Assembly: GCA_965198105.1 (NCBI GenBank)
Contig: OZ240240.1
Span: 2,656,650-2,720,649 of the forward strand
Direction of reading: 5' to 3'
Source: Dehalococcoidia bacterium
GTDB taxonomy: Bacteria > Chloroflexota > Dehalococcoidia > Lucifugimonadales > CBDBON01
Length of the DNA: 64,000 bases
Position numbers and translations under genes: made by a program. Shown here piece by piece: positions 38,434-63,437 of this stretch (positions are counted from its first letter, which is position 1; the number at the start of each line of letters is the position of its first letter). The notes beneath the pieces are model-generated. The model was not told where the DNA came from and made no database searches. It saw only the letters and a list, made by a program, of their open reading frames with translations.

Positions 38434-38499
38434 GCGTCTGTCCTCCTGACGATTCGGCCACAGCCTAGCACAGTCGGCCCGCGCCTTGCGTGCTCCGTC

Positions 38500-38623
38500 G
38501 TAACTGTTCAGACTTGCGGCGGGACCCCCATCTCAATCTTCCCCCGCAGAGCCGGGGAAGAGGTAAGAACCTCCTCTCCACCCCGCCAATTGCCCGCATT
38601 ACACATGGAGTCTGGGCAGTTAC
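38500..38623. mobile_element. MITE copy 1 (124 bp)
   Basis: Ends GTAACTGTTCAGA / TCTGGGCAGTTAC; flanks GCTCCGTC / GTTCCGTC (7/8 TSD match). Confidence 0.85.
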
Positions 38624-38716
38624 GTTCCGTCAACCGGAAGGTTGGAGAAGGCGGCATCGTGATAGAATCCTCAGTCTCGCGAGGGTCGAAGGGCCGTACG
38701 GGGACCAGGAGAAGGA

Positions 38717-38841
38717 GTAGATGTTCAGACTTGAGGGGAGCCCCCATCTCAATCTTCCCCCGCGGAGCCGGGGGAAGAGGTAAGAGGCTTCTCTCCGTCC
38801 ACCAGATTCGTCAGAGTGTCTCACGGAGTCTGAACAGTTAC
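38717..38841. mobile_element. MITE copy 2 (125 bp)
   Basis: Ends GTAGATGTTCAGA / TCTGAACAGTTAC; perfect 8-bp TSD GAGAAGGA (38709-38716, 38842-38849). Confidence 0.88.
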
Positions 38842-38857
38842 GAGAAGGAGGAGAGGC

Positions 38858-39604
38858 ATGCGTCTGGAAGGAAAGGTCGCGATAATCAGCGGGGCCGCGA
38901 GTGGAATGGGCGCCGAGGAGGCGCGTCTGTTCGCCAGGGAGGGCGCGCGCGTCGTCGTCGCGGATATCACTGACGACGACGGCGAGGCGGTAGCCCGCGA
39001 GATCGAGGACAGCGGAGGGGAGGCGGTCTTCGTCCACACCGACGTGACGAGCGAGGGGTCGTGGAGGCACGCGGTCGAGACTACACTCGAGCGGTACGGG
39101 AAGGTCGACATCCTCGTCAATAACGCCGGCATCAGCAGCGGCATCTTCTCGGACCCGCTGGACGTCGGCGGCTGGTCCCGGATCATGGACGTCAACGCAA
39201 CCGGCGTCTACCTCGGTACGCGAGCGGTAATCCCCTCGATGCAGAAGGCTCGAGCCGGGTCGATCGTCAACATCTCGTCTATCATGGGATTCGTCGCCGG
39301 CGACTACGGCCACCCCGCGTACCACGCCTCCAAGGGAGCCGTGCGCATCTTCACCAAGGCGACCGCGGTCAGGTACGGCCCCGACGGGATCCGGGCCAAC
39401 TCCGTCCACCCCGGATATATGCCGCCGATGAAGACCTCGGTCCGCGATCCGGCCGACCGGGAGGAGCACGTCAGGCTGACGCCCCTGCGCCGGATCGGGG
39501 AGACGATAGAGGTTGCGAACGGGGTGCTGTTCCTGGCCTCCGACGAGGCGTCGTTCATCACCGGCACCGAGCTGGTCATCGACGGGGGCTTCATCGCACG
39601 CTAG
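38858..39604 (+). CDS. short-chain dehydrogenase/reductase
   Basis: ISGAASGMG, NNAG, NISS, YHASK and NSVHPG motifs. Confidence 0.93.
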   Translation: MRLEGKVAIISGAASGMGAEEARLFAREGARVVVADITDDDGEAVAREIEDSGGEAVFVHTDVTSEGSWRHAVETTLERYGKVDILVNNAGISSGIFSDPLDVGGWSRIMDVNATGVYLGTRAVIPSMQKARAGSIVNISSIMGFVAGDYGHPAYHASKGAVRIFTKATAVRYGPDGIRANSVHPGYMPPMKTSVRDPADREEHVRLTPLRRIGETIEVANGVLFLASDEASFITGTELVIDGGFIAR

Positions 39605-39605
39605 A

Positions 39606-41285
39606 ATGGGGCATCCTGCGACGCCGCTCGGGCAGAGAGCCGTGCTCCAACGAGGCGACAGCTACGAAGAGGTAGTGGAGAGGTTCCGGTGGCAGATCCC
39701 GGAACGGTTCAACATTGGAGTCGACATCTGCGACCGGCACGCGGCCGACCGGTCGAGGGTGGCGCTCATCCACGACAACGATGAGACGGGGACGGTCGCC
39801 GAGTACACCTTCCATCAGCTCAGCCGGCTGAGCAACCGGCTGGCAAACGCGCTGAGAGGGCTCGGCGTCGAGAGAGGCGACCGTATCGGGATCGTTCTTC
39901 CCCAACGGCCGGAGACTGCGCTCTCCCACCTGGCGGCGTACAAGCTCGGCGCCGTCGCCGTGCCGCTGGCCGTGCTCTTCGGCACCGACGCGCTGGAGTA
40001 TCGGCTGCGCGACAGCGGCACGAAGGCGGTTGTGGTCGACGACTCCGGTCTTGAGAAGGTACTGTCGATCCGCGGGTCGCTGCCGGAGCTGCAGAAGATC
40101 ATCCTGGTCGGAGGCAGCTCTCCGCCCGGCGTCCAGAGCTTTGACGAGCTGACCGATCAGGGCGACGACAGTCTGTCACCGGTCCCGACCCGATCCGAGG
40201 AGCCGGCGCTCCTCATCTATACCTCCGGTACTACCGGCGCGCCAAAGGGCGCACTGCACGCCCACCGCGTGGTTCTGGGCCATCTTCCCGGCGTGGAGTT
40301 CCCTCACAACTTCGCTCCGCAGCCGGGAGACCGGTTCTGGACCCCGGCCGACTGGGCGTGGGCTGGCGGGCTGCTCGACGTCCTGCTTCCCGCCTGGCAC
40401 CACGGACTCCCCGTGGTGGCCCACCACTCAAGACGGTTCGACCCTGACAGGGCCTTCTCCATCCTGGCGCGACATGGCGTACGCAACGCCTTCATGCCTC
40501 CGACGGCGTTGAAGATGATGCGCGAGGTCCCTAAGCCCGCGGGGCGGCACGACTTCGCGCTGCGCTCACTGGCATGCGGCGGCGAGGCGCTCGGCGAGGA
40601 GATACTCGAATGGGGCGAGTCGACGATGGGAGCGGTCATCAACGAGTTCTACGGGCAGACGGAGGCCAACCTCGTCGTCGGCAACTGCCACGAGGTGATG
40701 GAGATCAGGCCGGGGTCGATGGGCAGGCCGATGCCCGGACACGAGGTCGCCGTTCTTCGGGAGGACGGAAGCGCGGCCCCGGCGGGAGAGATCGGGGAGA
40801 TCGCCGTCAGACGGCCCGACCCGGTCATGTTCTTGGAGTACTGGAACGACCCGGAGGCGACGGCCGAGAAGTTCACCGGCGACTGGGCGCTGACGGGCGA
40901 CCTGGCGCGCCGGGACGAGGACGGCTACCTGTGGTTCACGGGACGCAAGGACGACCTGATCGTCAGCAGCGCCTATCGTATGGGCCCGGTCGAGATCGAG
41001 GATTCGATCTTGAAGCATCCCGCCGTGTCGATCGCGGCCGTCATAGGCGTGCCCCACAGCGTCCGCGGCTCTGTGGTCAAGGCCTTCATCAGGCTGAAGC
41101 CCGGACACCGGCCTTCCGACGCGCTCGCCGGGTCGATACGGGAGCTGGTGAAGTCCAGAGTGGCTGCGCACGAGTATCCCAGGGAAGTCGAATTCGTAGA
41201 CTCGCTGCCCTTGACGACCACTGGTAAGGTGATGCGTGGGGAGCTTCGGGCACTCGAAGAGGAGAGACGGCAGAGGAACCGATAG
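39606..41285 (+). CDS. acyl-CoA synthetase (AMP-binding)
   Basis: YTSGTTGAPKG, NEFYGQTE, TGD, GRKDDLI and TTTGK motifs. Confidence 0.92.
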   Translation: MGHPATPLGQRAVLQRGDSYEEVVERFRWQIPERFNIGVDICDRHAADRSRVALIHDNDETGTVAEYTFHQLSRLSNRLANALRGLGVERGDRIGIVLPQRPETALSHLAAYKLGAVAVPLAVLFGTDALEYRLRDSGTKAVVVDDSGLEKVLSIRGSLPELQKIILVGGSSPPGVQSFDELTDQGDDSLSPVPTRSEEPALLIYTSGTTGAPKGALHAHRVVLGHLPGVEFPHNFAPQPGDRFWTPADWAWAGGLLDVLLPAWHHGLPVVAHHSRRFDPDRAFSILARHGVRNAFMPPTALKMMREVPKPAGRHDFALRSLACGGEALGEEILEWGESTMGAVINEFYGQTEANLVVGNCHEVMEIRPGSMGRPMPGHEVAVLREDGSAAPAGEIGEIAVRRPDPVMFLEYWNDPEATAEKFTGDWALTGDLARRDEDGYLWFTGRKDDLIVSSAYRMGPVEIEDSILKHPAVSIAAVIGVPHSVRGSVVKAFIRLKPGHRPSDALAGSIRELVKSRVAAHEYPREVEFVDSLPLTTTGKVMRGELRALEEERRQRNR

Positions 41286-41302
41286 TCAGAGAGAGGAGAG
41301 CC

Positions 41303-42730
41303 ATGGCAGACGAAGAGTTGGCATTCAGATCCGCGACCGAGCTGGTGGAGATGATAGCGTCGAAGCAGGTGTCGCCGGTGGAGTTGACCGAGCTCTATTA
41401 CCGCCGCATCGATCGTCTCGACTCCAAGCTGAACTCATACCTGCTGCTCACCCACGACCACGCGATGGAGAAGGCGAGGGCGGCGGAGGCGGCGGTAGTC
41501 CGGGGCGACGAGCTGGGTCCGATGCACGGCCTGCCCGTGTCGATCAAGGACACGCAGGCGGTGAAGGGCTTTCCGTGGACGATGGGATCGATCGTCTTCA
41601 AGGACAGGGTCCCGGAGCGGGACTCGACCGTCGTGGAGAGGATGTTCGGCGCGGGAGCGATCATGCTGGGGAAGACGAACGCGCCCGAGTTCGGGCTGGT
41701 CGGGACGTGCGAGAACTCTCTGGGCGAGCCCGGCCGCAACCCGTGGAACACCGACCGCGTTCCGGGCGGGTCCAGCGGAGGGGCGGCTGCGGCCATGGCC
41801 GCGTCGCTCTGCGCCATCGCGACGGGCGGCGACGGCGGAGGCTCGATACGCATACCCGCCAGCTTCTGCGGAGTCTACGGCATCAAGCCCAGCCAGGGCA
41901 GGGTGTCTGTGTACTCCGGTCTGGAGGGTCCGCCGTCGGCCAACACCTTCAGCCAGCAGGGGCCGTTGAGCCGTACGGTCCGCGACAGTGCACTGATGCT
42001 GAAGGTGCTCGCCGGTCACGACCGGAGGGACCCTCTCTCGCTACGTGAGGAGCCGCCGGACTTCATGGCGGCCGTGGATAGGGATATATCCGGGCTGCGC
42101 ATCGCGTGGAGTCCGGACTACGGCTTCGCGGCAGTGGACGCCGAGGTGCTCGAGGCGACGACGAGCGCGGCGCGCGAGTTCGAGCAGATGGGATGCAGCG
42201 TGGAGGAGTCGGACCTAGTCATCGACTCTCCGTATACGGCCTACGGGCCGATATACGAGTCGAACGCCTACAATTCGTACAGCGGCTACCTGGATGAGTA
42301 CGGCGACCGAATGACCGGCTTCACCAGGCAGTTCATCGAGTGGGGATCGAAGGTGACCGTCGCCGACTACGCCAAGGCGCAGGGGCTGATCGAGGAGCTG
42401 AAGGCGCAGATGACCGACCTGTTCGAGGAGTACGACCTGCTGCTGTCCCCGACCACTTCGGTGACGGCGATACCGGTCGACGAGTTTCCCGAGGAGTACG
42501 CGGGCAGGCCGGCCTATCCCCACAAGTACTTCGGCTTCCATCCGTTCACCTATCCGATCAACGCCGTCGGTCATCCGGCGGCCAGCATCCCGGCCGGATT
42601 CTCGTCCGAGGGGATGCCGATCGGTCTCCACATCGTCGGAAGGAGAGGGGACGAGGAGACGGTGCTGGCGGCGTCGGCCGCCTTCGAGCGGGCCAGGCCG
42701 TGGACGGACCGGAGGCCCCCGGTCTCCTGA
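41303..42730 (+). CDS. amidase-signature family amidase
   Basis: HGLPVSIKD, GKTNAPEFG, GGSSGG and DGGGSIRIPAS motifs. Confidence 0.95.
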   Translation: MADEELAFRSATELVEMIASKQVSPVELTELYYRRIDRLDSKLNSYLLLTHDHAMEKARAAEAAVVRGDELGPMHGLPVSIKDTQAVKGFPWTMGSIVFKDRVPERDSTVVERMFGAGAIMLGKTNAPEFGLVGTCENSLGEPGRNPWNTDRVPGGSSGGAAAAMAASLCAIATGGDGGGSIRIPASFCGVYGIKPSQGRVSVYSGLEGPPSANTFSQQGPLSRTVRDSALMLKVLAGHDRRDPLSLREEPPDFMAAVDRDISGLRIAWSPDYGFAAVDAEVLEATTSAAREFEQMGCSVEESDLVIDSPYTAYGPIYESNAYNSYSGYLDEYGDRMTGFTRQFIEWGSKVTVADYAKAQGLIEELKAQMTDLFEEYDLLLSPTTSVTAIPVDEFPEEYAGRPAYPHKYFGFHPFTYPINAVGHPAASIPAGFSSEGMPIGLHIVGRRGDEETVLAASAAFERARPWTDRRPPVS

Positions 42731-42807
42731 TTAGACGGCGGACGGGAGGTCCCCTCCTCTGAGATCCCGCTGGATACCGGCCTCCGCCGGTATGACGGAG
42801 GGTCAGG

Positions 42808-43932
42808 ATGATATACGACGGACACGCCTACTGCTTCCCGGACCTCCGCGGCAACGGAGGGTTCGCCGATCCGGAGCAGTTTCGCAGGCACCTTCAGCTT
42901 GGGATGGCTCGGCACTTCCAGCCCGTCTGGCGCAAGCGCGACCGCGCGCCGGCCGACGAGAGCGGAATAGCCGACCCGGACGGAGGCTGGGACTTCGGGT
43001 CGCTCAGAGAGGCCCGGTTCCGTCCCACGTCATACGGCCGCTTCGAGTGGGCTGCGGACGGCGAGGAGTACGTCAAACAGTACCTGCCCCCTTCGGTGGC
43101 GGAGATGGCCTATCACGCCGAGGCGCTGGTCGCCGAGATGGACTACGCCGGAGTGGACATGGCGTTGCTACACAGGACGCCCTACCTCGGCATCGGAAAC
43201 GAGTTCGTCGCCGACTGCTGCAGGAGGCTTCCGGACCGGCTCCAGGGCCTGGCGCACATCGAGGAGTGGACCATCCGGTCCGACCCCGACGGAGCGGTCG
43301 CCAAGCTCGAGGAGGCGATCAATGGGATGGGGCTGCACGGCTTACAGCTGCTGCCCGACCATCTGCCGTTGTACGGTCAGAAGGAGGACTGGGAGGGGCC
43401 GGACTTCAAGCCGTTCTGGGATGCGGCGGCGACGCTGGACATCCCGGTCTTCATCACACCGGGATACTCGTCGCTGGCGACGCGGGGCTGGGCCCAGACG
43501 GACGCCGTCGTCGCGCGGCTGCTACAGCTGCGCAGCTTCGTCGAGCGGTATCCGGACATGAGGGTCGTGCTTACGCACGGGCTGAGCTGGAGGGTCTTCC
43601 TGGAAGATGACGGCCTGTCGGTCCCGGACGAGGTCTTCGACGCGCTCCCGTTGGACAGCCCGAATTTCTACCTACAGCTGATGTTCGCCATCTACCTCGG
43701 CGGGATGTGGGACTATCCGATGTTGGAGGTGCGGCCGACGATCGAGCAGCTCGTGGAGCGCCTGGGCGTCGACAGGCTGGTCTGGGGAACGGACATGCCG
43801 ATGGTGATGCGCTTCTACACCTACCGGCAGAACCTGGAGCACATCAGGGTGTGCGCGGACTTCCTGGGCAAGCGCGAGATGGGGATGATCCTGGGCGGCA
43901 ACATGGCCCGACTCATGGGCTTCGCGGAGTAG
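42808..43932 (+). CDS. amidohydrolase family protein (Amidohydro_2-like)
   Basis: DGHAYC, LTHG, WGTDMP and ILGGNMARL motifs. Confidence 0.8.
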   Translation: MIYDGHAYCFPDLRGNGGFADPEQFRRHLQLGMARHFQPVWRKRDRAPADESGIADPDGGWDFGSLREARFRPTSYGRFEWAADGEEYVKQYLPPSVAEMAYHAEALVAEMDYAGVDMALLHRTPYLGIGNEFVADCCRRLPDRLQGLAHIEEWTIRSDPDGAVAKLEEAINGMGLHGLQLLPDHLPLYGQKEDWEGPDFKPFWDAAATLDIPVFITPGYSSLATRGWAQTDAVVARLLQLRSFVERYPDMRVVLTHGLSWRVFLEDDGLSVPDEVFDALPLDSPNFYLQLMFAIYLGGMWDYPMLEVRPTIEQLVERLGVDRLVWGTDMPMVMRFYTYRQNLEHIRVCADFLGKREMGMILGGNMARLMGFAE

Positions 43933-44060
43933 TAGCGGCCTGCCCGGATGCCTCTGATCGATCGCGGCGACGGTGGGAGCCCCCATCCTGACCTTCCCCC
44001 GGCTCTGCGGGGGAAGGGAGGAGAGAGCCGTCCCGCAGGCAGCGGGCCCCGCGGAACCGG

Positions 44061-44711
44061 TCAATACATGTGCGGCTGTACCGAGGCGGCGATGGTCAGC
44101 TCGATGTCCTGGATCGCTTGGGACATGGCCTGGCCGATCAGGTCGAGCTTGCGCACCTGCTCGATACGTTGTGAAGCCCTGTTCGCCTCCTGCCTGGACA
44201 GCAGTCCATTGAATATCCCGCAGGCGTCGGCCAGGGAGATTATCACCACGTCGCGCGGGTGCGGGATATCGTCGCTGAACAGCACTCCCATGATGCGCAG
44301 CTTCACCTCGCGCTCCACCTTGCCGTCGATCACCGGATAGCGTCTGGCCCTGAACACCCACAGGAATCGGTCGTCTCTGGACTCGAGGATACCGGCGGAG
44401 ACCAGCCGGGCGAGCGCCTCCTCGTGGATCTCCTGGGCGCGGTCGGCTGTGCGCTCCACCCAGAAACGGGCGTCGCGCTCCGAACCCGCCGCGATGTCAG
44501 CCAGCGTCGGGTCGAGCAGGCTGTCGCCGACGGGCGTGTCGTCGACCAGGACCAGCCTCTTCAGATCGGTGTCGATGCGATTTTCCAGCGCCAGGTCCAT
44601 CAACACGCCGCCCGCGAGGGCATAGTTCATAGACCACCTGGGCACGTGCGCGAACTTGCCATCGTCGTCGTTGAGCAGGAGTAGAGTGATCTCCTCGGCA
44701 AATCTCAACAT
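44061..44711 (-). CDS. GPP34/GOLPH3-Vps74 family phosphoprotein
   Basis: LRFAEEITLLLL, LAGGVLMDLAL..RI, L..LV..GIL, FLWVF..RRYP motifs. Confidence 0.85.
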   Translation of the reverse strand: MLRFAEEITLLLLNDDDGKFAHVPRWSMNYALAGGVLMDLALENRIDTDLKRLVLVDDTPVGDSLLDPTLADIAAGSERDARFWVERTADRAQEIHEEALARLVSAGILESRDDRFLWVFRARRYPVIDGKVEREVKLRIMGVLFSDDIPHPRDVVIISLADACGIFNGLLSRQEANRASQRIEQVRKLDLIGQAMSQAIQDIELTIAASVQPHMY

Positions 44712-44792
44712 GGCGCTTGCCCTCTCTCCGTTGGCCTTCTCACGCGTGCGTCGCGGCAGCCCTGATGTGGCCGTCCTTGCGATCGCGTGAGG

Positions 44793-46184
44793 CTAGTCCT
44801 CTGCATCGAACTGCTCCGGCATGAGTACGAATTCGGGATAGGCTTCGATTCCCAGCTCTCCGCTGTCCTGACCCAGCTCTTCCACCTGGCGGGTCACCCG
44901 GGCGCCCAGAGTCATGTCCACCAGGCGCCAGATGAGCCAGCTGGTCGCGAATACGAACGCACCGATCGCTACTATGCCGATCAACTGGACGTGGAAGGTT
45001 CCGCCGGCGGCGATGCAGACGGCGAGGGTGCCCCAGATGCCTGCGAACAGGTGGGCGGGAACCGCGCCGACGACGTCGTCGATTCTCAGTTTCTCCAGGA
45101 GCTTCAGGCCGGCGGTGCACACGATGCCACCGATGAGGCCGATGATAACGGCCCAGTAGTGTTCTGTGATGTCCGGTCCGGCCGTTATGGAGACGAGGCC
45201 GGCGATCGCGCCGTTCAGGCCAGCGAAGAGGTCCATGCGTCCCAGCAAAGGCCGGGAGACGACGAGGGCTGCCACGACGCCGCCGGCGGCGGCCAGAGTG
45301 GTGTTGGCCAGCACGTTGCTCATCGCCACGGCATCGGCGGCGCTTCCCAGGGCCAGCTGCGACCCACCGTTGAAGCCGAACCAGCCGAACCAGAGGATGA
45401 AGACACCGAGCGTCACCACCAGGATGTTGGAAGGCGGCGTGGGCTTGACGCTCCCGTCGCTCCGGTACTTGCCCAGCCTGGGCCCGACGACCAGCACTCC
45501 CGCGAGCGCGGCCCATCCGCCAGTGCTGTGCACGATGGTCGAACCGGCAAAGTCGCTGAATCCCAACTCATCCAGCCATCCTCCACCCCACGTCCAGGCG
45601 CCGACTATCGGGTAGATGAGCGCGGTGAGCACCAGCGTGAAGAGAAAGAAGGACCACAACTTCACCCGCTCTGCCATGGCGCCGGACACGATGGAGGCCG
45701 CAGTCGCGACGAAGACCATCTGGAAGAACCAGTTGGACATGGTGGAGTAGCCGTTGCCGATAACGCTCGCCGCATCCCCTTCCCCTTCCAAGAGGGAGAC
45801 CTCGGCGGATGACGGTCCATATAGGAAGTCGGGGGTGCCGATGAAGCCGCCGATGATATCGCCGTACATGAGGTTGTAGCCGACGACGAAGTAGGCGAGG
45901 CATGCGATCGAGTAGATGCCGATATTCTTCAGGCAGATCATGGAGGCGTTCTTGGTGCGGACGGAGCCGGACTCGAGCATGGTGAAGCCGGCGCACATCC
46001 ACATGACCAGCGCTCCCCAAATGAGGAACGAGAAGGTGTTGAATATGAACTGCGTCTCCTCGTCTATTCCCGCCGCGTGCGCTACGGCCGGGCGCGCGAG
46101 GAAGAGTCCCAGCGTCAGAAGCGCCGCCCCCGCGATTACGGATGCGCGGCTTCGACGCGTGAATATATTGGTCAGTGTCCTCAT
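44793..46184 (-). CDS. amt: ammonium transporter (second, divergent Amt)
   Basis: GFTMLESGSVR.KN, FQMVF, AERVK, DFAGSTIVHSTGG, WFGFNGGS and DDVVGAVPAH; GGAG SD before ATG 46184. Confidence 0.93.
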   Translation of the reverse strand: MRTLTNIFTRRSRASVIAGAALLTLGLFLARPAVAHAAGIDEETQFIFNTFSFLIWGALVMWMCAGFTMLESGSVRTKNASMICLKNIGIYSIACLAYFVVGYNLMYGDIIGGFIGTPDFLYGPSSAEVSLLEGEGDAASVIGNGYSTMSNWFFQMVFVATAASIVSGAMAERVKLWSFFLFTLVLTALIYPIVGAWTWGGGWLDELGFSDFAGSTIVHSTGGWAALAGVLVVGPRLGKYRSDGSVKPTPPSNILVVTLGVFILWFGWFGFNGGSQLALGSAADAVAMSNVLANTTLAAAGGVVAALVVSRPLLGRMDLFAGLNGAIAGLVSITAGPDITEHYWAVIIGLIGGIVCTAGLKLLEKLRIDDVVGAVPAHLFAGIWGTLAVCIAAGGTFHVQLIGIVAIGAFVFATSWLIWRLVDMTLGARVTRQVEELGQDSGELGIEAYPEFVLMPEQFDAED

Positions 46185-46396
46185 GGCTCCTGTCCTGCTG
46201 TGTCCCATCCGGTATTCAGTCCTCCCGGTACCGGGAAGCTCTCTTCTCCGACGTGACCTGGAGCCTCTGACGAGGTCGCGCAGACGAGATGCCGCCCCAT
46301 TCTGTCACATCGCCCCTGCGAATATCTATCCTGCGACACTGTATCACAGCAGCATCATAAGGGGCGGCGAGAAGGAGAAGGAGACGTAGACTCCCA

Positions 46397-47260: not shown

Positions 47261-47264
47261 CGGA

Positions 47265-48233: not shown

Positions 48234-48237
48234 CAGA

Positions 48238-49671: not shown

Positions 49672-49910
49672 GGCAATGACCGTATCATAAGATGGCGCAT
49701 CCTATCCACACCGCACCGCCAGTGTCGAAACCCCGTATCGGCTGCGGCGTCGGGCTGCCATATCATTCCATTGCTGATAGACTGTCGGCAAAACGACCTC
49801 ATGCTGGTAGACTGCGCGCACAGAACAGCCACGCGAGGCCGACCGGCGAAACGACCGTCAGCTCGGCCCGCAACGTGATTGCTCGTAACATCACTAAGGG
49901 GACAGACGAG

Positions 49911-50249
49911 ATGGAAATCAGCACCGAGAGGAAAGGGAGTGTACTGGTCGCGACGACCGAGGAGCGCATCGACGGCGTCAACGCCCGCGCGTTCCAGGAC
50001 GCTCTACAGGCGGCGATCGAAGATACGGATCGCGCCGTGATCATCGATCTGAGTCAGCTCACGTACATCAGCAGCGCCGGTCTTCGAGTGATTCTGCTGA
50101 TTGCCAGGACGCTGCAGAGACAGGACGGCAACCTGGCGGTCTGCTCCCTCTCCGACCCGGTCCTGGAGGTCTTTCAGATTAGCGGCTTCGATCAGATCAT
50201 TAAGACCTACGGTACTCAAGAAGAGGCGGTCTCCGCGCTTACAAGCTGA
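49911..50249 (+). CDS. STAS domain anti-sigma-factor antagonist
   Basis: IDLSQLTYISSAGLRVIL and VFQISGF motifs. Confidence 0.92.
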   Translation: MEISTERKGSVLVATTEERIDGVNARAFQDALQAAIEDTDRAVIIDLSQLTYISSAGLRVILLIARTLQRQDGNLAVCSLSDPVLEVFQISGFDQIIKTYGTQEEAVSALTS

Positions 50250-50251
50250 TC

Positions 50252-53754: not shown

Positions 53755-54479
53755 TCGGAATCTGACGCCGTCTCGTACCGGCCGATAAGCTCCTGCTGGT
53801 CTCCTCCCTCCTCTCGCGGCACCCTGGCAAGGGCTACGGTCTTGGGAAGCACGATGCCGCCCGAGAAGACCAGCTTCATCGCGTCCTGTACGGTGAGGTC
53901 GGTCTCCATCACCTCGTCCTCTACCACGAGGGCCATGTTCCCGGACGTCGGGTTGGGGACCGTCGGAATATATACGAGCACCAGCGACTGGGCGTGATCG
54001 GCGGAGAATACGCGTCCGGTCACGAAGCCCATCGCCGCCATCCCCTCGCGGGGCCACTCCAGGAAGACGACTCTGCTGAACTTGTACTCCGAAGTGAGCA
54101 CAGTCGTGGCCTGCTGCGTGACACCGAAGATCGTTCTGACGATAGGGACTACACCCAGAGCCGCGTCCTTGAACTCCATGACCCTCCGGCCGAATCCGGT
54201 GGCTAACACCAGTCCGGCAAGATAGAACACGACGACCAGGACGATCAGTCCGATCCCCGGAAAGTCCCAGGGTCTATCCTCGACGAACCCAAGCGATTTG
54301 ATGAAGCTGTCGGCGCGGTCGATGATGAACACGAGGACGATCATCGTTACGAGCAACGGCACCAGATCGATGAGCCCGGCCAGCGTCCTGCTCTGGATGT
54401 GCCGCTCAATCCTCCGCAGCAGGTTAGGCTGCGCACTCTCTTCCGTTCCGGGTTGAGGGGTACTCCCGTCGTTCGCCAA
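53751..54479 (-). CDS. DUF502 domain membrane protein
   Basis: PGIGL, PIVRTIF..TQQ, EWPREG and YIPTVPNPTSG motifs. Confidence 0.88.
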   Translation of the reverse strand: MANDGSTPQPGTEESAQPNLLRRIERHIQSRTLAGLIDLVPLLVTMIVLVFIIDRADSFIKSLGFVEDRPWDFPGIGLIVLVVVFYLAGLVLATGFGRRVMEFKDAALGVVPIVRTIFGVTQQATTVLTSEYKFSRVVFLEWPREGMAAMGFVTGRVFSADHAQSLVLVYIPTVPNPTSGNMALVVEDEVMETDLTVQDAMKLVFSGGIVLPKTVALARVPREEGGDQQELIGRYETASDSD

Positions 54480-54695
54480 TGGTCTACCTCGCCTTCCTTT
54501 CTGAACTGCCTCCGATCACTTGAGCGGTTTATGAACTCGGCATTAACCCCCAAAGGATAGTTCGCGCGGGATGGTGGGCGGAATTTGGATCAGTTGTCCG
54601 GCACCGGGATCGCATTCATGCGCTGCACCCCGAGCCTCTTCACCCACTAGTCGTCGTCATCTTCCCACTGGGTCTGCTCCACGACCCGCGACGGC

Positions 54696-55167
54696 CTATG
54701 CGTTGTCGTATCCGGTCCAGTCATGGTACTCGGAGTAGTCCTGACCATCCAGCCTGATGTAGTCACCTAGCTCTTCGAAATCGGGGCGCGAGATGCCGTT
54801 GACGTCCCACAGGATCTCTCCATTCCGGATCGTCATCTGGCAGTTAAGGCGCCGGTCGCCGCGCATTCTGGCTAACCCCGAATCTATGAAACCGAATTCA
54901 CCCTCCTCCAACTCCAGCACCGCGATGTCCGCCTGGGCACCGACGGAGAGATTGCCAAGCTCAGGACGTTTCATCCAGACCTGGAGTGACGTAGAGGCCC
55001 GCCACGTTCACACTCTGTGATGCCACGGTGGAGGGAATTTTACCCCCTATCTCGGCAATCATGCTGTTCCTGACTGCCACATCGGCGCGACCATCCAGAC
55101 GATTGGCAGGGTCGATCACGTGACCACCCTTGAGAAGTAGGTCATACCTATCGTTGGACGCGGTCAT
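54696..55167 (-). pseudogene. amidohydrolase/deacetylase (dihydroorotase-like) with the central catalytic region deleted
   Basis: N-terminal LLLKGGHVIDPAN..VTPGL joined out of frame to C-terminal ELGNLSVGAQADIAVL...GEILWD. Confidence 0.8.
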
Positions 55168-55360
55168 CTGATCTCCCCTCCTTATCTCTCAAGCTTAGGG
55201 CGTCCCTCGGCTATCCGATTAATGATCGTATGGTCGCTGTAGATGAGCCAACAGATTGAGGACAGCACAAGGACGTAAAGCTGTCGAATGGTCCTGACGA
55301 CTAGCACCAGATGGGAAGCAGACAACAGAACTCTACTGGATTGTGGGCAAAAACTATAGC

Positions 55361-57351
55361 TGATTCCCTCGTAACAAGGGCCTTTCGGGTTGGTTCTGCG
55401 GCGTGAGGGCGGTTAGGCGAGGGATTTGGTTTTGTTCCGGTCGGGGCTTGTGTTGCGGCCGATGAGGTAGTTGTGGTGCGCCATACCCCGTCCTGGTAGG
55501 CATCAGCGGGCTCGCAACGGCTCCTGTAGCCTCATGCAGCGGTGGGATCGGGCGCCAAGGCAGCCGGTGGGACCAACATCTCGTCCATCTCGGTCAGCCG
55601 TGCCCGGACCATTCGCTTGATGTTACACGCCAGGGCCTTGAGGTAGACGGCGAGCCGGACCCTCTCTCCTCCACGTACTCGTAGGCGGCCAAGACCATGG
55701 CGCCGTTTCAACTCTGAGTTCGTACCCTCTATCCCCGCACGCAACCCGTACCGTTTACGCCATTGTCCATCCGACTCGGCCCGCCGCCTACGTCCGATGT
55801 TCACCCTGGCGAGGTCCGCACTCAGCACGTAGGCTCCACTCGGCGACCACTCTCCCCCGAGCTCAGGGCGACGACGCCACCTCACAGGACACCGGGAACG
55901 CAGCGAACAGGGCTCACACACCTCCCGGGCGAAGTGCATCTCCACTCGCTCGGGAGCCTCTTCATCCTCGTACTCGGACACGGCCTCATGTCCCGCAGGA
56001 CACACCGCAGCCCTCCTTGCCGTAACGTCGATGTCAAAGTCAGCAGCCGTCAGCCTGACCAGCCCATCATTCTCATCGGCCTCCGCTGGCGCCCGGCCCC
56101 CGACAGGGCTCACCAACTCCGTCCCCCTGCGCTCCGCCTCCCATCCGTTCCGGCCAGAACCATACGACGTGTCGCACCACAGCTCCGAAGGGCCTATCCC
56201 TCGCTCTCTCAACTCATCGATCACCCCCACCGTCACACCGGCGTCGCCATCGCTCGATGGCGTGACCTCCACGTGGGTGATCATCTGCACGGCGTTCCCC
56301 TCTTCGCACGTCTCAGACACCTGCACCTCGTACCCCTTCCCCTTGTGTCCGCTGTAGGTCACCGCCGGGTCGTGCGGCGTCTGCATAGAGCTCGACCGCA
56401 CCTCCTTCGCCTCCTTCAGCGCGATCGGCACCTTCCCCTCTGCCGCATCGTCGTCATCGGCGCTGGGACGACCGTCCCTGTGACGGCCCACGCGGCACTG
56501 CTCATGCAAAAGCCTCTCCAACAGACCGTACTCCTCCATATCCGCCACCGCCGTCCCGCGGAACCTATCCACCAGCCGGTACACGTCTCGCGCACACACC
56601 GACAGCCGGCGACGCCCCTCACCTGAACGTGCGTCCTCGTACCTCGATGCTTCTCCGGTCTCCTTCAGGTACCGCTGTGCCAGACCATCCCCAATCCCTT
56701 CTCCCAGACCGGGGTGCTCACGGCTCACCGCCAGCAGGAACACCCGGACCGTCTCGCAGAACAGACCCAACCGCGTCAACACCGCGATATTGCTCATGAC
56801 ATGCGTCGAGTCCAGGCGCTGCTTGCCTGTCCGCAGTCCCAGGGCCTCTATCATCCGGTCCGTCGTCTCACAGAAGGCCAATCGCCCGCCGTCGTGCTCC
56901 ATCAACCGCACACGAAAGTTGTGCAGCGTCTTCTGGGCAAGGTGCGCCTCCTCCATCTCCAGCCGCAGCGCGTGGTGCCACAGCAGATTGAACTCCAACT
57001 CTTCCAACGCCTCCATGTCCGTCAGATCGAACATCTCCTTGAGCACCAGCACTCCCAGCACCGTCTGCACGGCGCGATTGGGCCTGCCCATGTCCGGGCT
57101 GTACAGCGGAGCGAACCGCTCCTCCTCTATCAGAACCAGAGCCTCGTTCCGGAATACCTCCGCCCAGCTCCTACGCATCAGCTTCGCCTTCCTCGGTGTG
57201 ATCAGAAACTCCGACTGCCACAGGCTCTCCTGCGGTTCCCGGGCTTGAAACATCGTCCACCTACTCCTCAGCGTTCACTCCTCCACTCTCTCCGATCCTA
57301 TTATCCCTCACTTCCCAATACCCTCGCCCATGACTTTTTACGAGTGAATCA
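55361..57351 (-). mobile_element. IS element (IS1182/IS5-like DDE), 1991 bp
   Basis: TIRs TGATTCCCTCGTAACAAG (55361-55378) and CTTTTTACGAGTGAATCA (57334-57351), 16/18 match; no TSD seen. Confidence 0.82.
55532..57253 (-). CDS. DDE transposase (IS1182-like)
   Basis: GRP N-terminal domain, RLDSTH, KGYEVQV, CDTSYG, CPAGH..C..C and RAGIEGTNSELKRRHG motifs. Confidence 0.9.
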   Translation of the reverse strand: MFQAREPQESLWQSEFLITPRKAKLMRRSWAEVFRNEALVLIEEERFAPLYSPDMGRPNRAVQTVLGVLVLKEMFDLTDMEALEELEFNLLWHHALRLEMEEAHLAQKTLHNFRVRLMEHDGGRLAFCETTDRMIEALGLRTGKQRLDSTHVMSNIAVLTRLGLFCETVRVFLLAVSREHPGLGEGIGDGLAQRYLKETGEASRYEDARSGEGRRRLSVCARDVYRLVDRFRGTAVADMEEYGLLERLLHEQCRVGRHRDGRPSADDDDAAEGKVPIALKEAKEVRSSSMQTPHDPAVTYSGHKGKGYEVQVSETCEEGNAVQMITHVEVTPSSDGDAGVTVGVIDELRERGIGPSELWCDTSYGSGRNGWEAERRGTELVSPVGGRAPAEADENDGLVRLTAADFDIDVTARRAAVCPAGHEAVSEYEDEEAPERVEMHFAREVCEPCSLRSRCPVRWRRRPELGGEWSPSGAYVLSADLARVNIGRRRRAESDGQWRKRYGLRAGIEGTNSELKRRHGLGRLRVRGGERVRLAVYLKALACNIKRMVRARLTEMDEMLVPPAALAPDPTAA

Positions 57352-58369
57352 TTTCCTGTATTCGCTGAGTTGCAGATCCAGGATGCTCGCTCTCCTGCAG
57401 TCGATGCCAGGTAACAGATTCGACGGCCTCCCGTCTGATTCGGCCTTCCTACGCCGCGCCTGCGTTGCCAGTAGCGTAACCGCCTGAAGGAACTGGTCTC
57501 CGGTGATTCCCTGAAGGACTCCGAAAGCGGAATGCATCCGACCTTCGCGCTTTGACCAGTCGTCACGCAGCCGGAAGTCACCGGCGGCGAAAGATGCGGT
57601 CACCAATTCGAACACGCTCAGGGTCACGCCACCCGTGTTGACCTTCTCGAATACCGTGCAGACGGCCTCCTTGCGAGTTTCCTTTCCCAGACTGATCACA
57701 GGCACCTGGTACTGGCTGAAGTTGTCCAGCACGGCACTATTGAACTTATTGAAGAAGTCGAACGCGTTGCCGTGGGGATGATCACTGCGCCCCTGCCAGT
57801 ATTGAGCATACCTGAACCCCACGCCATACCGTTCATTACATTCTCGGTGGGTATCATGTGATGCTCAAACTCGAGCTCCGGCGCGGACAGATCCAGAACC
57901 ACATCCCGCCCGAAATTGGCCCTCACGACCTTGTCTGCTGGAACACTAAAGATCGTGTCATCGCGGTCGGCCAATGGATCCAGCGCCTTCTGCATGTCGA
58001 TGTAGTACCACAACTTGATGATTTTCGGCTGCCGGGCCGGTTCCGTGTCGCCACGGCGTCCTTATGCCGCAACGCCTGATACAGAGAGGTGAGCCGCTGC
58101 TGACCGTCCAGAAGATATTCCGCCGGGCCGGCCTTGCCGTCCTCAGCCACCCCCTCGATCAGTTTGCTCACGAACTGGATACCTCCGCTCGCATCGAGAG
58201 TCATTACGGCGCCTATGGGAAAGCCGCGTGAGATACTGACCAACAGATCTTTGATCCGAGCGTCGTCCCATACCCATCCCCGCTGAAAGTCCGGTAGCTG
58301 AATGTCGCCTTTCTCAATATCGCTCAGAAGATTTTCCAGCAAGAAGGCGTTGGCCTTGAACGTTGACAT
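57352..58369 (-). pseudogene. DUF262 (GmrS/ParB-like) protein, two frameshifts and 3'-truncated by the IS
   Basis: LPDFQRGWVWD, FPIG, LLDGQQRLTSL, then VFEKVNTGGVTLS in later frames; reading ends at the IS TIR. Confidence 0.85.
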
Positions 58370-58414
58370 CACTCTCCTCCCGTAGCTGTTACTATACCAC
58401 TGAGGAGGAAGCCT

Positions 58415-58705
58415 ATGACCGCCGCCGAACCGATCCACCCAGGAGAGCATCTGGCTGAGATCATGGCGGAGCTGGGCATCACCCAGTACCGCCTGGCTAA
58501 GACGATAGGAGTGCCCCCCATACGCATCAACGATATCGTCCACCGCCGCAGGTCCATCACCGCGGACACTGCGCTGCGAATCGGACAGGCCTTGGGGATG
58601 ACTCCCGACTTCTGGCTGAACCTTCAGCGGATGTACGACCTGGACGTGACCCGCGCAAAGACCGACGTCAGCGCCATCGAACCGCTTGTCGAGGCACCTG
58701 CTTGA
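58415..58705 (+). CDS. higA: HigA family antitoxin (orphan)
   Basis: PIHPGEHL, ITQYRLAK.IGVP..RINDIV..RRSITADTALR and FWLNLQ..YDL; GGAGG SD. Confidence 0.92.
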   Translation: MTAAEPIHPGEHLAEIMAELGITQYRLAKTIGVPPIRINDIVHRRRSITADTALRIGQALGMTPDFWLNLQRMYDLDVTRAKTDVSAIEPLVEAPA

Positions 58706-58751
58706 ACCAAAATTCCCCACCTAAATGACGGTGACGCTCTGAGGCAAGGGG

Positions 58752-58777
58752 AGGGCTGGTTTGAAACCAGCCCCTAC
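58752..58777 (-). repeat. GTAG-tagged REP
   Basis: Minus strand GTAGGGGCTGGTTTCAAACCAGCCCT. Confidence 0.75.
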
Positions 58778-58916
58778 GGGGTGATGGCTGATAGATATGG
58801 CGCTGAACGCGGAGGTGGGGGATCTGGGCTGAAACCACCGGCGCTTCTCTTTGAAGGAGATGTCCGAGGGCTCCCTACTCACCCGGTAGCAACTGGAGGC
58901 ATACCGCACTGGCGCG

Positions 58917-60608
58917 CTACGTCGTCACAGCGCCCACCGACGCCGACGAGACGAGCTTGGCGTACTTTGCCATGACGCCCGTCGTGTAGTTCGGAACGGG
59001 GGGTATCCACTCGCGCCCGCGGCGGTCGATCTCCTCTTTGGACAGCCTGACGCTCAGGTCTCGACGCTCTATGTCCAACGAGATGATGTCGCCGTCGCGT
59101 ATCAGCCCGATCGGTCCGCCCACCGCCGCCTCCGGCGCCACGTGCCCGATCATCGGCCCGTGAGTCGCCCCCGAGAAGCGTCCGTCGGTCATCAGCAGCA
59201 CGCTGTTCCCAAGCCCCTCCTGTCCCATGATCGCGCCGGTTACGGCGAGCATCTCCTGCATGCCGGGTCCGCCCTTCGGCCCCTCGTACCGGATGACCAC
59301 GACGTCACCCGGCTCTATCCGGCCGCCGGTAACGGCCTCGAAGGCGGCCCGCTCTCCGTCGAACACGCGGGCCGGCCCCTCGTGGCCGGCGCTCTTGCCG
59401 GGGGAGACCTTGAGGACGGCGCCCTCCGGCGCCAGGTTCCCCTTCAGTATCACGAGCCCGCCCGTCGGGCTGCGCGGGGATGAAGCCGAGTGGACGACCC
59501 GGCCGTCCGGGGCGGGCGGCCCAATCTCCGCCAGGTTCTCGGCAACCGTCCTGCCGGTGACGGTCATCGCGCCGCCGTGCAGCAGCCCCGCGTCGAGCAG
59601 CTCCTTCATGACGACCGGGACGCCGCCGACCTTGTCGAGGTCGGCCATGACGTACCGGCCCGCCGGGCGCAGGTCGGTCAGGTACGGGGTGCGACGGCTC
59701 AGCCGGTCGAACAGGTCGAGCTCCAGAGGGACGCCAGCCTCGTGCGCGATCGCCGGCAGGTGCAGCGCCGCGTTGGTCGAGCCGCCCATCGCGAGCACGA
59801 CGGTGATCGCGTTCTCCAGAGACTCTCTCGTGATGATGTCGCGCGGCTTGATGTCCCGTTCGAGCAGGTTGTACAGCACCGCGCCCGCCCCCGCGGCGAT
59901 AGCCTCGTTCCTCGGGTCGACCGCGGGGACGGAGGCCGCTCCGGGGACCGACATCCCCATCGCCTCTATCGCGGACGCCATCGTGTTCGCCGTGAACATC
60001 CCGGCGCAGGCGCCCTCTCCCGGACAGGCGACGCGCTCCATGGCGAGGAGCTCGTCGAGGGTGATCTTGCCCTGCGCGTGAGCGCCGACCGCCTCGAACA
60101 TGTCCTGGACGTTGATATCCTCGCCCCTGTGATTTCCCGGGAGGATAGCGCCGCCGTATACGAAGAGAGAGGGGATGTTCAGGCGGGCCATCGCCATGAT
60201 CGCGCCGGGCATGTTCTTGTCGCACGCGGCGACGACGATGGTGCCGTCCATACTCTCGGCGAAGTTGACCGTCTCGATCGAGTCGGCGATCACCTCGCGG
60301 CTGACGAGCGACGCCTTCATCCCCTCGGTGCCCATCGATATGCCGTCGCTGACGGTGATGGTCCCGAACATGAAGGGCACGCCCCCGGCGCCCCTGACCC
60401 CCTCGTGGACCTTGCGCGCCAGTCTGGTCAGATGGACGTTGCAGGGGGTGACGTCGCTGGCGAGGTTGCCGACGCTGACGAAGGGCTTGTCCATGTCCTC
60501 GTCGGTGAGCCCGACGGCCCTGAGCATCGCCCTCGCGGCGGCCCGGTCGGGACCGTCGCTAACGACATGGCTCTTTCGCTTGAGCATGGACGCGGTCTGT
60601 ATCGCCAT
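58917..60608 (-). CDS. ilvD: dihydroxy-acid dehydratase
   Basis: PCNVHL, DGISMG.EGM..SL.SRE, CDKNMPG, GACAGMFTANTM, GGSTN, YEGPKGGPGM.EM and TDGRFSG motifs. Confidence 0.97.
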   Translation of the reverse strand: MAIQTASMLKRKSHVVSDGPDRAAARAMLRAVGLTDEDMDKPFVSVGNLASDVTPCNVHLTRLARKVHEGVRGAGGVPFMFGTITVSDGISMGTEGMKASLVSREVIADSIETVNFAESMDGTIVVAACDKNMPGAIMAMARLNIPSLFVYGGAILPGNHRGEDINVQDMFEAVGAHAQGKITLDELLAMERVACPGEGACAGMFTANTMASAIEAMGMSVPGAASVPAVDPRNEAIAAGAGAVLYNLLERDIKPRDIITRESLENAITVVLAMGGSTNAALHLPAIAHEAGVPLELDLFDRLSRRTPYLTDLRPAGRYVMADLDKVGGVPVVMKELLDAGLLHGGAMTVTGRTVAENLAEIGPPAPDGRVVHSASSPRSPTGGLVILKGNLAPEGAVLKVSPGKSAGHEGPARVFDGERAAFEAVTGGRIEPGDVVVIRYEGPKGGPGMQEMLAVTGAIMGQEGLGNSVLLMTDGRFSGATHGPMIGHVAPEAAVGGPIGLIRDGDIISLDIERRDLSVRLSKEEIDRRGREWIPPVPNYTTGVMAKYAKLVSSASVGAVTT

Positions 60609-60693
60609 ATCCAATTCCTCCGGTCTGGCGTCTTCGGTCGACGCGGAGCTTGACGAGACCAGATTATAGTACACGGCGCGCGTGGGTGCTGCC

Positions 60694-60817
60694 GTAACTG
60701 TTCAGAGTTGAGAGGGGCCCCCCCATCTCAATCTTCCCCCGCGGACGGGGGAAGAGGAAAGAACCTTCTCTCCGTCCCGCCAACTACCCGCATCTCTCAC
60801 GTAGTCTGAACAGTTAC
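60694..60817. mobile_element. MITE copy 3 (124 bp)
   Basis: Perfect 13-bp TIRs GTAACTGTTCAGA / TCTGAACAGTTAC; perfect 8-bp TSD GTGCTGCC (60686-60693, 60818-60825). Confidence 0.92.
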
Positions 60818-60890
60818 GTGCTGCCCGCTCCTCTTGCGCCTCTGTGCTCTGGTCGCTATGCTGCGGGCAGCTAAGCGGTTGTCCAATTCG

Positions 60891-61361: not shown

Positions 61362-61396
61362 GATATAGACGGCCTCGAGGCTGGCGGGGTGGTCAA

Positions 61397-62296: not shown

Positions 62297-62306
62297 GGAC
62301 TGGTCG

Positions 62307-63335: not shown

Positions 63336-63437
63336 TAGCGGACCGGACTTACCCCCATCTTCGTACCAGCTGCAATGATGCTCCTAATGAGATGTGAGCA
63401 GACCCTAGGTCTTTGGAGGAGTCGCGGAGATTGAAAA

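Follow-up and report, generated by a model that had tools for sequence, protein, structure and literature searches.

Bacterial MITEs such as Correia/NEMIS, RUP, ERIC, Nezha, MITEAba12 and MITEPsy are short, non-coding elements with terminal inverted repeats (TIRs) copied from an insertion sequence (IS) and a target site duplication (TSD) of fixed length. The elements analyzed here, located in a 64-kb stretch of Dehalococcoidia DNA (the window), resemble them in being multi-copy, intergenic and polymorphic between strains. They differ in their probable parent, an IS66-family element of the ISBst12 group, and in a core that belongs to a separately mobile REP-like family. No IS66-derived MITE was described in the literature that we searched. 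Termini beginning with GTAA are general in the IS66 family. The ISBst12-group element ISDge4 of Deinococcus geothermalis, whose transposition was observed experimentally, has the TIR GTAACTGCTCAGCA and an 8-bp repeat and encodes a transposase of 449 aa (PMC12898284). Both ISDge4 and the MITE (GTAACTGTTCAGA) start with GTAAC and duplicate 8 bp of target, whereas the window elements are 124-bp, gene-less sequences in which about 25 nt per end are IS-derived.

Another close group comprises REP, BIME and REPIN sequences, for which a conserved GTAG or CGTC tetranucleotide at one end serves as criterion (Di Nocera et al. 2013, PMC3733652). The same study found REPs regularly within longer palindromes, namely A. 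variabilis GTAG-15, H. neapolitanus CGTC-1 and T. roseum GTAG-23. Like these, the palindrome studied here forms the middle of a longer shell of inverted repeats that recurs genome-wide. The published shells are not tied to an IS family, TSDs or empty sites, whereas ours carry IS66/ISBst12 ends and their transposition is documented. The window contains 13 CTTCCCCC..GGGGGAAG hairpin units, all outside the gene calls checked. They share with REPs the form of a GC-rich imperfect palindrome of about 45-50 bp, the high copy number, the extragenic location, often immediately downstream of a stop codon or between the genes of an operon, and the occurrence as single units or in mixed clusters (13.4-18.5 kb). 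In contrast to REPs, the unit carries no GTAG or CGTC tag at its end and has no RAYT gene nearby in the loci sampled. It starts with (G)GGGRNCCCCCATC, or with CA-CCCCCATC in metagenomes, and YTAGGATGGGGG is present in some copies only. Lacking the terminal tag, it is therefore called REP-like. True CGTC-type units also occur in the window, at 14519-14538 and 42774-42793.

Table 1. Positions of MITE copies, their target site duplications and REP-like units in the window.
Feature	Position	Strand	Description
MITE copy 1	38500-38623	+	124 bp; left terminus GTAACTGTTCAGA; right terminus TCTGGGCAGTTAC, 2 mismatches
TSD of copy 1	38492-38499 / 38624-38631		GCTCCGTC / GTTCCGTC; 7/8 match
MITE copy 2	38717-38841	+	125 bp; left terminus GTAGATGTTCAGA, 2 mismatches
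TSD of copy 2	38709-38716 and 38842-38849		GAGAAGGA on both sides; 8/8
MITE copy 3	60694-60817	+	124 bp; 13-bp termini perfect
TSD of copy 3	60686-60693 and 60818-60825		GTGCTGCC on both sides; 8/8
Left-truncated MITE copy	25239-25343	+	REP unit, right arm and right terminus TCCGAACAGTTAT
Relic right half, second MITE subfamily	36043-36122	+	about 80 bp; terminus CCTGAACAGTTAC, same as MITE
REP-like module inside copy 2	38736-38783	+	same module in other copies
Same module elsewhere	38520-38567, 60715-60762, 25239-25286		in copy 1, copy 3 and the truncated copy, respectively
Free REP-like unit	21174-21221	+	TCTTCCCCC type as in MITE, no TIRs; directly after stop codon
Free REP-like unit	28595-28642	+	directly after stop codon of BNR/sortilin-like gene; polymorphic site
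Free REP-like unit	18238-18280	-	TCTTCCCCC type; adjoins CCTTCCCCC-type hairpin at 18193-18237
Free REP-like unit	13495-13539	-	CCTTCCCCC variant
Other CCTTCCCCC-variant unit	15664-15708		hairpin only
Other CCTTCCCCC-variant unit	15704-15748	-	
Other CCTTCCCCC-variant unit	16808-16852	-	
Other CCTTCCCCC-variant unit	43975-44022	+	

A search of the window for the terminus GTAACTGTTCAGA gave nine matches at ≤2 mismatches, compared to 0.36 expected, among them the pairs 38500/38623, 38717/38841 and 60694/60817. The original prediction of three elements with these ends, each flanked by its own 8-bp duplication, was thereby confirmed, as the flanks could be read directly. The proposed 13-bp TIR holds strictly for copy 3 alone. 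In copies 1 and 2, one of the arms contains two mismatches, and the inverted repeat reaches about 23-25 bp in imperfect form, like that of the parent IS. Nor are the copies near-identical, as had been assumed: pairwise identity between window copies and those of a relative (locus L121) is about 80-93%, and mean column identity across seven family copies is 87%, with the REP core as the sole invariant part. Since the copies differ by 7-20%, none of them is a very recent insertion. Family copies measure 124-126 bp, which leaves no room for a transposase gene. The elements are thus short (below about 300 bp), non-coding, TIR-bounded and flanked by fixed-length TSDs, and they show presence/absence polymorphism, as MITEs do. 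The whole MITE can be folded into a long hairpin. Its region gave no match to Rfam even at E-values up to 1, and promoter and terminator scans revealed neither consensus sigma-70 promoters nor intrinsic terminators in or around the copies. A TPP riboswitch is the sole gathering-level Rfam match in the window. One further terminus match with two mismatches, at 12262-12274, was dropped, because it is not supported by homology and chance alone predicts one such match.

Comparison with related genomes directly demonstrated the mobility of the MITE by orthologous sites with and without the insertion. Four syntenic relatives (L214-L217) lack copies 1 and 2, and the window sequence minus each of these MITEs and one TSD aligns colinearly with all four. 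At the empty site of copy 1, L215-L217 retain a single GTTCCGTC, in agreement with the independent insertions that had been postulated. The insertion of copy 3 is common to L121 (97% nucleotide identity), where its TIR is decaying. This relative contains two further MITE copies, one flanked by CATGGGAC on both sides and the other by CGTGAACT/CGTGAGCT. Taken over the window and L121, 8-bp repeats were found at five independent sites, three matching at 8/8 and two at 7/8 positions. Relative loci were reached by homologue searches; exact look-ups of the ilvD and dehydrogenase ORFs of the window had given no match. Two other loci (L122 and L123) with an ilvD that is 87% identical were rejected as a source of an empty site for copy 3, because their upstream region is not syntenic. 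This exact MITE was absent from 120 genome loci, in which the termini alone match, and from the metagenome matches.

The insertions lie close to genes. On one side of copy 2 is a conserved upstream block, on the other the ribosome-binding site of a gene for a short-chain dehydrogenase. This site is overlapped by the TSD, and 16 bp separate the end of the MITE from the start codon. Copy 3 is located between ilvD, encoded on the minus strand, and a rimK-like gene, just upstream of ilvD. Effects on the dehydrogenase gene and on ilvD are possible. Furthermore, the 124-bp element and the REP units fall into spurious long ORFs, for example 38167-38973, which affects annotation.

The proposed search for an IS that shares the termini and the 8-bp TSDs was successful in related genomes. 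We found 11 elements of 1426-1463 bp with the termini of the MITE in Dehalococcoidia and other Chloroflexota genomes. All 11 begin with GTAA(C/G)TGTTCAGA, and the TSD matches at 8/8 positions in 10 of them. One long transposase ORF is present in each IS examined (L019, L052 and L067); in L052 and L067, a single ORF of 457-463 aa fills the element, and there is no tnpA/tnpB. The two intact proteins (457 and 463 aa) match PF03050 (DDE_Tnp_IS66) with E-values of 4e-38 and 6e-44, and one of the two also matches zf-IS66. With DDE_Tnp_IS66 as sole ORF, GTAA ends and an 8-bp repeat, the full-length elements belong to the ISBst12 group of the IS66 family. Their inverted repeat spans about 23-25 bp, and the left end of the MITE is identical to it at 23 of 25 positions. 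Homology between the MITE and the IS copies found is restricted to about 25 nt at each end, and the full-length elements contain no REP-like hairpin. These shared termini support the notion of a non-autonomous MITE family with 8-bp TSDs mobilized by a DDE transposase. As had been noted before, the ends of the MITE are not shared by any IS in the window: the only one identified, an IS1182-like element at about 55416-57328, ends in GGCGAGGGATTTGG, is unrelated to the MITE termini and was discarded as partner. Neither the window nor about 85 kb of DNA from close relatives yielded a full-length partner IS, so that current activity in this genome is no more than a possibility.

Taken together, it is highly probable that the 124-126 bp MITE consists of IS66/ISBst12-group ends around a captured REP-like hairpin and is moved in trans. 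The two ends of an ISBst12-group IS, represented by about 23 bp on the left and about 26 bp on the right, would enclose a non-coding core, the first 48 bp or so of which form the REP-like double hairpin. The gene-less element would be recognized at its GTAACTGTTCAGA termini by a single-ORF DDE transposase, which presumably joins them to a target cut with an 8-bp stagger; repair would then leave the 8-bp duplication. The REP-like unit was probably captured once in the ancestor of the family and has since hitch-hiked with each transposition. At the junction, the inner part of the IS terminus (GTTGAGGGGA) is similar to the left arm of the small REP hairpin. The model implies that a working partner IS would be present in this genome.

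The captured module comprises two hairpins, first a small one (GAGGGG..CCCCATCTC) and then a GC hairpin of 10 bp (TCTTCCCCCG-loop-CGGGGGAAGA). Its inner unit CCCCCATCTCAATCTTCCCCC has eight matches at ≤3 mismatches with none expected, four of them inside the elements, and the free copies were found at the places that the original prediction had named. As the module folds into REP-like hairpins and the whole element into a long one, it could also be regarded as a REPIN-like unit moved by a Y1/RAYT transposase, in which case the inverted termini would be incidental. Transposition by Y1 enzymes, as known from IS200/IS605 and RAYTs, generates no target duplication, whereas the copies described here have 8-bp TSDs. 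Moreover, their termini equal those of DDE elements of the IS66 family, the unit end carries neither GTAG nor CGTC, and no Y1, TnpB or RAYT gene adjoins the unit in the metagenomic loci sampled. Its neighbours in the five largest neighbour-gene clusters are ordinary metabolic and transport genes. We therefore consider this origin very improbable.

The truncated copy predicted from the sequence is real and extends from 25239 to 25343; it is cut off at the 5′ edge of the REP unit. The copy is absent in L214; at this site, a free REP of a different variant is present in L215 and L216. In contrast, the predicted solo right end at 36110-36122 is not solitary. The terminus is present as the tip of a relic of about 80 bp, which belongs to a different subfamily, holds a degenerate CGTC-type REP half (CGGAATGACAG) and aligns with MITEs in L074, L027 and L107. 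The ORF upstream of this relic (34763-35986) was ruled out as the missing transposase, since it encodes an ammonium transporter.

Three free window units (18257, 21179 and 28600) share the TCTTCCCCC variant of the MITE core, which would be expected if free units were decayed MITEs that had lost their TIRs and the MITE were the source of the palindrome family. Several observations make such a descent hardly credible. None of 93 exact metagenomic copies of a 22-mer of the unit, which come from contigs of 41-65% G+C, lies between such TIRs. Free units resemble the MITE within the 48 bp of the unit and not beyond, as is evident for the unit at 21174-21221. Compared with L218, where the site is empty, the unit at 28595 was inserted cleanly and without any trace of a TIR; at the same site, L214 and L215 have CGTC-type REPs. 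In addition, the commoner CCTTCCCCC variant was never found inside a MITE in the window. Free units are thus gained, lost or swapped for other REP families at orthologous sites in the absence of TIRs. The REP family does not depend on the MITE, which captured a REP and is one minor route of spread. The idea of the MITE as the vehicle of the palindrome holds insofar as each transposition copies the embedded REP, but the family spreads independently, and the MITE is not the link between the two repeat classes.

A single capture was weighed against the possibility that TIR-bounded shells are preferred landing sites, into which REPs insert or convert after each transposition. In other Chloroflexota, short elements bounded by these ends harbour different REP families, including CGTC-type and GGGAGAGGG-type REPs, some of them nested, and one orthologous intergenic site holds different REP families across strains. 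In copy 3, the REP has a loop shorter by 2 nt and resembles the free unit at 21174 more than the REPs of copies 1 and 2; this is more readily explained by REP exchange or conversion than by a single clean capture. The REPs that regularly occur inside longer palindromes (PMC3733652) provide a precedent. The density of GC-rich perfect hairpins within 29 such elements is about 20 times that in the remainder of the same loci (5.35 versus 0.25 per kb), but the comparison loci are mostly coding, and relative to true intergenic DNA the elements are much less enriched; related MITEs, moreover, are not independent observations. Within this family, the REP occupies the same position in the same orientation with the same junctions in all seven copies, and its core is invariant, as a single founder predicts. 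Repeated landing is therefore conceivable, yet on balance unlikely as the origin of this family, for which a single capture is preferred.

On a wider scale, we only tentatively suggest that ISBst12-type shells made of two ends of about 25 bp repeatedly receive and carry at least three unrelated REP families across Dehalococcoidia (CCCCCATC/CTTCCCCC, CGTC and GGGAGAGGG types), that such chimeras might be spread by two unrelated machineries, and that REP cores might recombine with resident REPs. Recombination of this kind, if true, would explain why the copy at 25239, located where relatives have a free REP, is cut exactly at the REP edge. The coupling of DDE-type and REP-type repeats would then be systematic and not the result of a one-off capture. 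Recurrent MITE-REP chimerism is the one point that we regard as mildly new.

The family belongs to an uncultured soil lineage of Chloroflexota and derives from a little-studied part of IS66, the single-ORF (ISBst12) branch. It is apparently described here for the first time, with clean before-and-after insertion sites available. REP hairpins in shells, together with REP turnover at intergenic hot-spots, provide a tractable system, which could show how REP-like elements move without an evident RAYT.

The terminus GTAACTGTTCAGA and its complement matched the window nine times with at most two mismatches (0.36 expected), and an inner 21-mer, CCCCCATCTCAATCTTCCCCC, gave eight matches with at most three mismatches (0 expected). 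The terminus matches paired as the three TIR-bounded elements of the original prediction (copies 1 to 3), and the separate 8-mer duplication claimed for each was read directly at all three. The proposed 13-bp TIRs form the perfect stretch within an inverted repeat that extends imperfectly over about 23-25 bp. The copies had been called near-identical, which did not hold: pairwise identity is only about 80-93% and the REP core alone is invariant. Mean column identity was 87% across seven MITE copies, those of the window and of L121, a relative sharing the ilvD region. The left-truncated copy exists, with its right end at 25343, and the supposed solo right end is indeed a terminus but forms the tip of an approx. 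80-bp relic. All MITE copies are intergenic, and no target consensus was apparent among the flanking 8-mers.

Positions of the repeat elements and neighboring features (window coordinates unless a locus is named)
Feature	Position	Flanks, sequence or content
MITE copy 1	38500-38623	GCTCCGTC / GTTCCGTC
MITE copy 2	38717-38841	GAGAAGGA, both sides
MITE copy 3	60694-60817	GTGCTGCC, both sides
Additional MITE copy	L121	CATGGGAC, both sides
Additional MITE copy	L121	CGTGAACT/CGTGAGCT
Left-truncated MITE copy	25239-25343	
Lone right terminus	36110-36122	
Spacer after BNR/sortilin-like gene	28590-28650	CCCCCATC-type unit
Same spacer	L218, ~1834-1848	empty, gcgTAGG|gaaaagaccgg
Same spacer	L214, 3800-3914	one CGTC-type REP
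Same spacer	L215, 3681-3901	two CGTC-type REPs
Other palindrome families	13460-13545, 14425-14545, 15660-16015, 18190-18455, 24442-24464, 32775-32795, 42774-42793	CCCTCTCCC..GGGAGAGGG; CCTTCTCCC..GGGAGAAGG; CGTC-tagged: ATTCCCGC..GCGGGAAT; ATACCGGC..GCCGGTAT
Larger nested MITEs	L025, 4625-4979; L026, 7279-7657; L048, 3939-4312; L075, 4763-5164	
Firmicutes elements	L002, 5152-5294; L069, 4158-4310; L109, 1544-1684	8-mer flanks match at 6-8 of 8 positions
IS1182/IS5-like element	55416-57328	573-aa transposase (DDE_Tnp_1_6 + DUF772); ends GGCGAGGGATTTGG
GmrSD-type restriction gene	57349-58720	broken into two ORFs; adjoins the IS1182/IS5-like element
TPP riboswitch (RF00059)	12070-12215	66.9 bits; upstream of a likely solute-binding protein gene
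11-bp GC hairpin and T-run	12186-12222	after the TPP riboswitch
Region of lower G+C (0.57)	21862-24356	two minus-strand ORFs (200 and 631 aa) with no Pfam match; may be foreign DNA
53-bp insert, L218 only	L218, ~9785-9850	tccggctgaacggccccttcgacaagctcagggtgaacggacgcacattcaac; just upstream of the empty site of copy 1

Homologues of the dehydrogenase adjoining copy 2 were found at 94-97% identity on long contigs, and five loci (L214-L218) are syntenic with the window around it (peptidase S15, a 98-aa gene, then the dehydrogenase). Copies 1 and 2 are both absent from L214-L217. Removal of each MITE together with one 8-mer from the window in silico resulted in a gapless alignment to L214-L217 at site 1 and left a 3-bp difference from L214 at site 2. 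In the empty-site check suggested by the original prediction, site 1 of L215-L217 read ttgcgtGTTCCGTCaacc, where the 8-mer duplicated in the window occurs only once. The truncated copy is missing from L214. L121, 97% identical in nucleotide sequence over 58883-63461, also has copy 3, inserted at the identical position between identical 8-mers and with one terminus altered by two substitutions; it contains two additional MITE copies besides. Copy 3 is older than copies 1 and 2.

The window has a G+C content of 60-70%, and its ilvD protein shares 78-81% identity with proteins of 'SAR202 cluster bacterium' and 'Chloroflexi bacterium' and at most 95% with ENA metagenome proteins. The genome is that of a member of the Chloroflexota, most likely one of the broadly defined Dehalococcoidia. 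In L121 a Mrr-type nuclease takes the place of the split GmrSD-type gene, indicating a variable defence islet beside ilvD.

Scanning one genome per species for GTAACTGTTCAGANT yielded at least 120 loci. Among the matches listed, about half came from Dehalococcoidia or Chloroflexota MAGs; the termini paired at 108-402 bp (many MITEs) and, in at least 11 elements, at 1426-1463 bp, 10 of these 11 having a perfect 8-bp duplication. An IS with these termini and 8-bp TSDs, sought as a further check, was thereby found in related genomes. A single ORF of 457-463 aa fills the long elements of L052 and L067, its stop codon falling within the right terminus (..QL*), and in L019 the transposase frame is broken into two ORFs. 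Two intact transposases matched PF03050 DDE_Tnp_IS66 (E 4e-38 and 6e-44), one of them also zf-IS66. An IS66 relative with one ORF, a length in this range, GTAA... ends and a repeat of 8 bp falls by definition into the ISBst12 group, and the long elements belong to this group of the IS66 family. Transposition of ISDge4 from Deinococcus geothermalis (TIR GTAACTGCTCAGCA, 449-aa transposase, 8-bp repeat CCTCGATG) was recently observed (PMC12898284). Environmental assemblies contain very many members of the transposase family (5822 proteins at E <= 1e-80). AT-rich, MITE-sized elements of 141-153 bp with GTAACTGTTCAGA termini also occur in Firmicutes (Lachnospiraceae, Blautia, Clostridiales), so the ISBst12-type terminus is conserved across phyla.

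The left end of the MITE matches that of the IS (L052) at 23 of 25 positions, and its right end shares with the IS right end (L067) the 13 terminal bases and part of the sub-terminal TCTCA block. The parent of the MITE is an IS66/ISBst12 element, and the IS-derived part is confined to the ends. No full-length IS with these ends was found in the window or in the loci of close relatives. Transposition is demonstrated by orthologous sites that are vacant in some loci and occupied in others; also established are the IS66-type termini, the 8-bp duplications and the existence of autonomous relatives whose ends and duplication length are identical. A DDE transposase of the ISBst12 type, supplied from another locus in the genome, would bind the MITE termini and insert the element through cuts staggered by 8 bp, and the REP-like core would be copied passively.

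Two hairpins form in this core unit as single-stranded DNA, one small (GAGGGG..CCCCATCTC) and the other a 10-bp GC hairpin (TCTTCCCCCG-loop-CGGGGGAAGA). Free copies of the unit had been noted in the original prediction, and related units were found at the positions given there. The window contains 13 units: six TCTTCCCCC-type units and, at 28600, an imperfect one (four in MITE copies; free at 18242, 21191 and 28600) and six CCTTCCCCC-type units, all free. Like REP/BIME elements, free units occupy short spacers, either immediately behind a stop codon or shortly ahead of a start codon, and sometimes cluster with other palindrome families, e.g. at 13.4-18.5 kb. At least four other palindromic families are present in the window, partly as BIME-like arrays between genes of an apparent transporter operon. 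Unlike REPs, the passenger unit lacks the GTAG or CGTC end tag used as a REP criterion (PMC3733652). Nor was an association with RAYT seen, with no Y1 or TnpB gene in the five largest clusters of its metagenome neighbors, which are ordinary genes (Amidohydro_2, solute-binding proteins, AFOR). Rfam gave no match to the unit or the MITE region either, and we use the label REP-like.

The exact 22-mer CCCCCATCTCAATCTTCCCCCG had 93 occurrences, spread over 90 metagenome contigs (L124-L213; 41-65% G+C), and not one occurrence was TIR-bounded. It is exactly conserved despite the very different contig compositions, is usually preceded by CA and leads into a short loop and then GGGGGAAGARG (window example 21174-21221); an inverted degenerate copy (GGAAGGACAAAGGAAGGGGTGA) often lies about 17 nt upstream. 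Similarity between free units and the MITE does not extend past the boundaries of the 48-bp unit. The unit at 28595-28642, after the BNR/sortilin-like gene, is cleanly inserted when compared with L218. This post-stop spacer is a REP hot-spot. The lack of TIR-bounded metagenome copies, the 48-bp limit of similarity and the turnover at orthologous sites show that the unit does not depend on the MITE. The proposal that the MITE is a vehicle linking two repeat classes is thus only partly borne out: the MITE carries the unit, but the REP-like family spreads alone, far beyond the lineage of the window.

In the seven MITE copies the unit has identical position, orientation and junctions, and one capture in a founder followed by hitch-hiking is the simplest reading. 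The left junction falls where the inner part of the IS end (GTTGAGGGGA) and the small hairpin's left arm (GGGGA|CCCCC) are alike, and in copy 3 TTGAGA of the terminus pairs with TCTCAA of the unit; both suggest that capture may have occurred through microhomology. The REP of copy 3 has a loop 2 nt shorter and, at 94% identity, is closer to the free unit at 21174 than to the REPs of copies 1 and 2, which hints at REP exchange. The truncated copy is cut exactly at the REP 5' edge, the same point at which L215 and L216 carry a free REP of a different variant. Recombination of a resident REP with a MITE-borne one may have produced it.

In other Chloroflexota genomes, different palindromes occupy the short elements that share these ends, and some are nested or expanded in tandem: CGTC-type REPs (e.g. 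CCGTCATTCCCGCGCAGGCGGGAATCCAG, frequently paired in inverted orientation), GGGAGAGGG-type units and CCCCCTTCTCC..GGAGAAGGGGG-type units. The window fits this pattern, as the relic with its tip at 36110 aligns with the CGTC-REP-bearing MITEs of L074, L027 and L107. Larger MITEs with this terminus show three nesting levels, an extra inverted-repeat element (GGAGACCTTTGAATAATCCCCTCTC...CAAAGGTCTCC) lying within the loop of a CGTC-type REP; in L075 the REP half-site CCGTCATTCCCGCGCAA is repeated four times in tandem. Perfect GC-rich hairpins reached 5.35 per kb inside 29 short elements (at least one in 18 of 29) compared with 0.25 per kb elsewhere in the loci and none in the 11 full-length IS, which is suggestive rather than proof of a REP-shell association beyond the MITE family of the window, because the background is mostly coding sequence and the elements are interrelated. 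Some REP families regularly lie inside longer palindromes, a precedent for the general picture in which no IS family was tied to them (Di Nocera et al., PMC3733652).

The dehydrogenase start codon lies 16 bp downstream of copy 2, which separates the ribosome-binding site from a block (GGCATCGTGATAGAATCCTCAGTCTCGCG) highly conserved in all relatives. If this block is the promoter, copy 2 would form part of the transcribed 5' leader. Scans in and around the MITE copies showed no consensus promoter or terminator. By every criterion tested the element is a MITE, and its autonomous relatives are known from other genomes; we found no description of an IS66-derived MITE in the literature. The recurrent chimerism of REPs with ISBst12-end shells in Dehalococcoidia is the part of most continuing interest.
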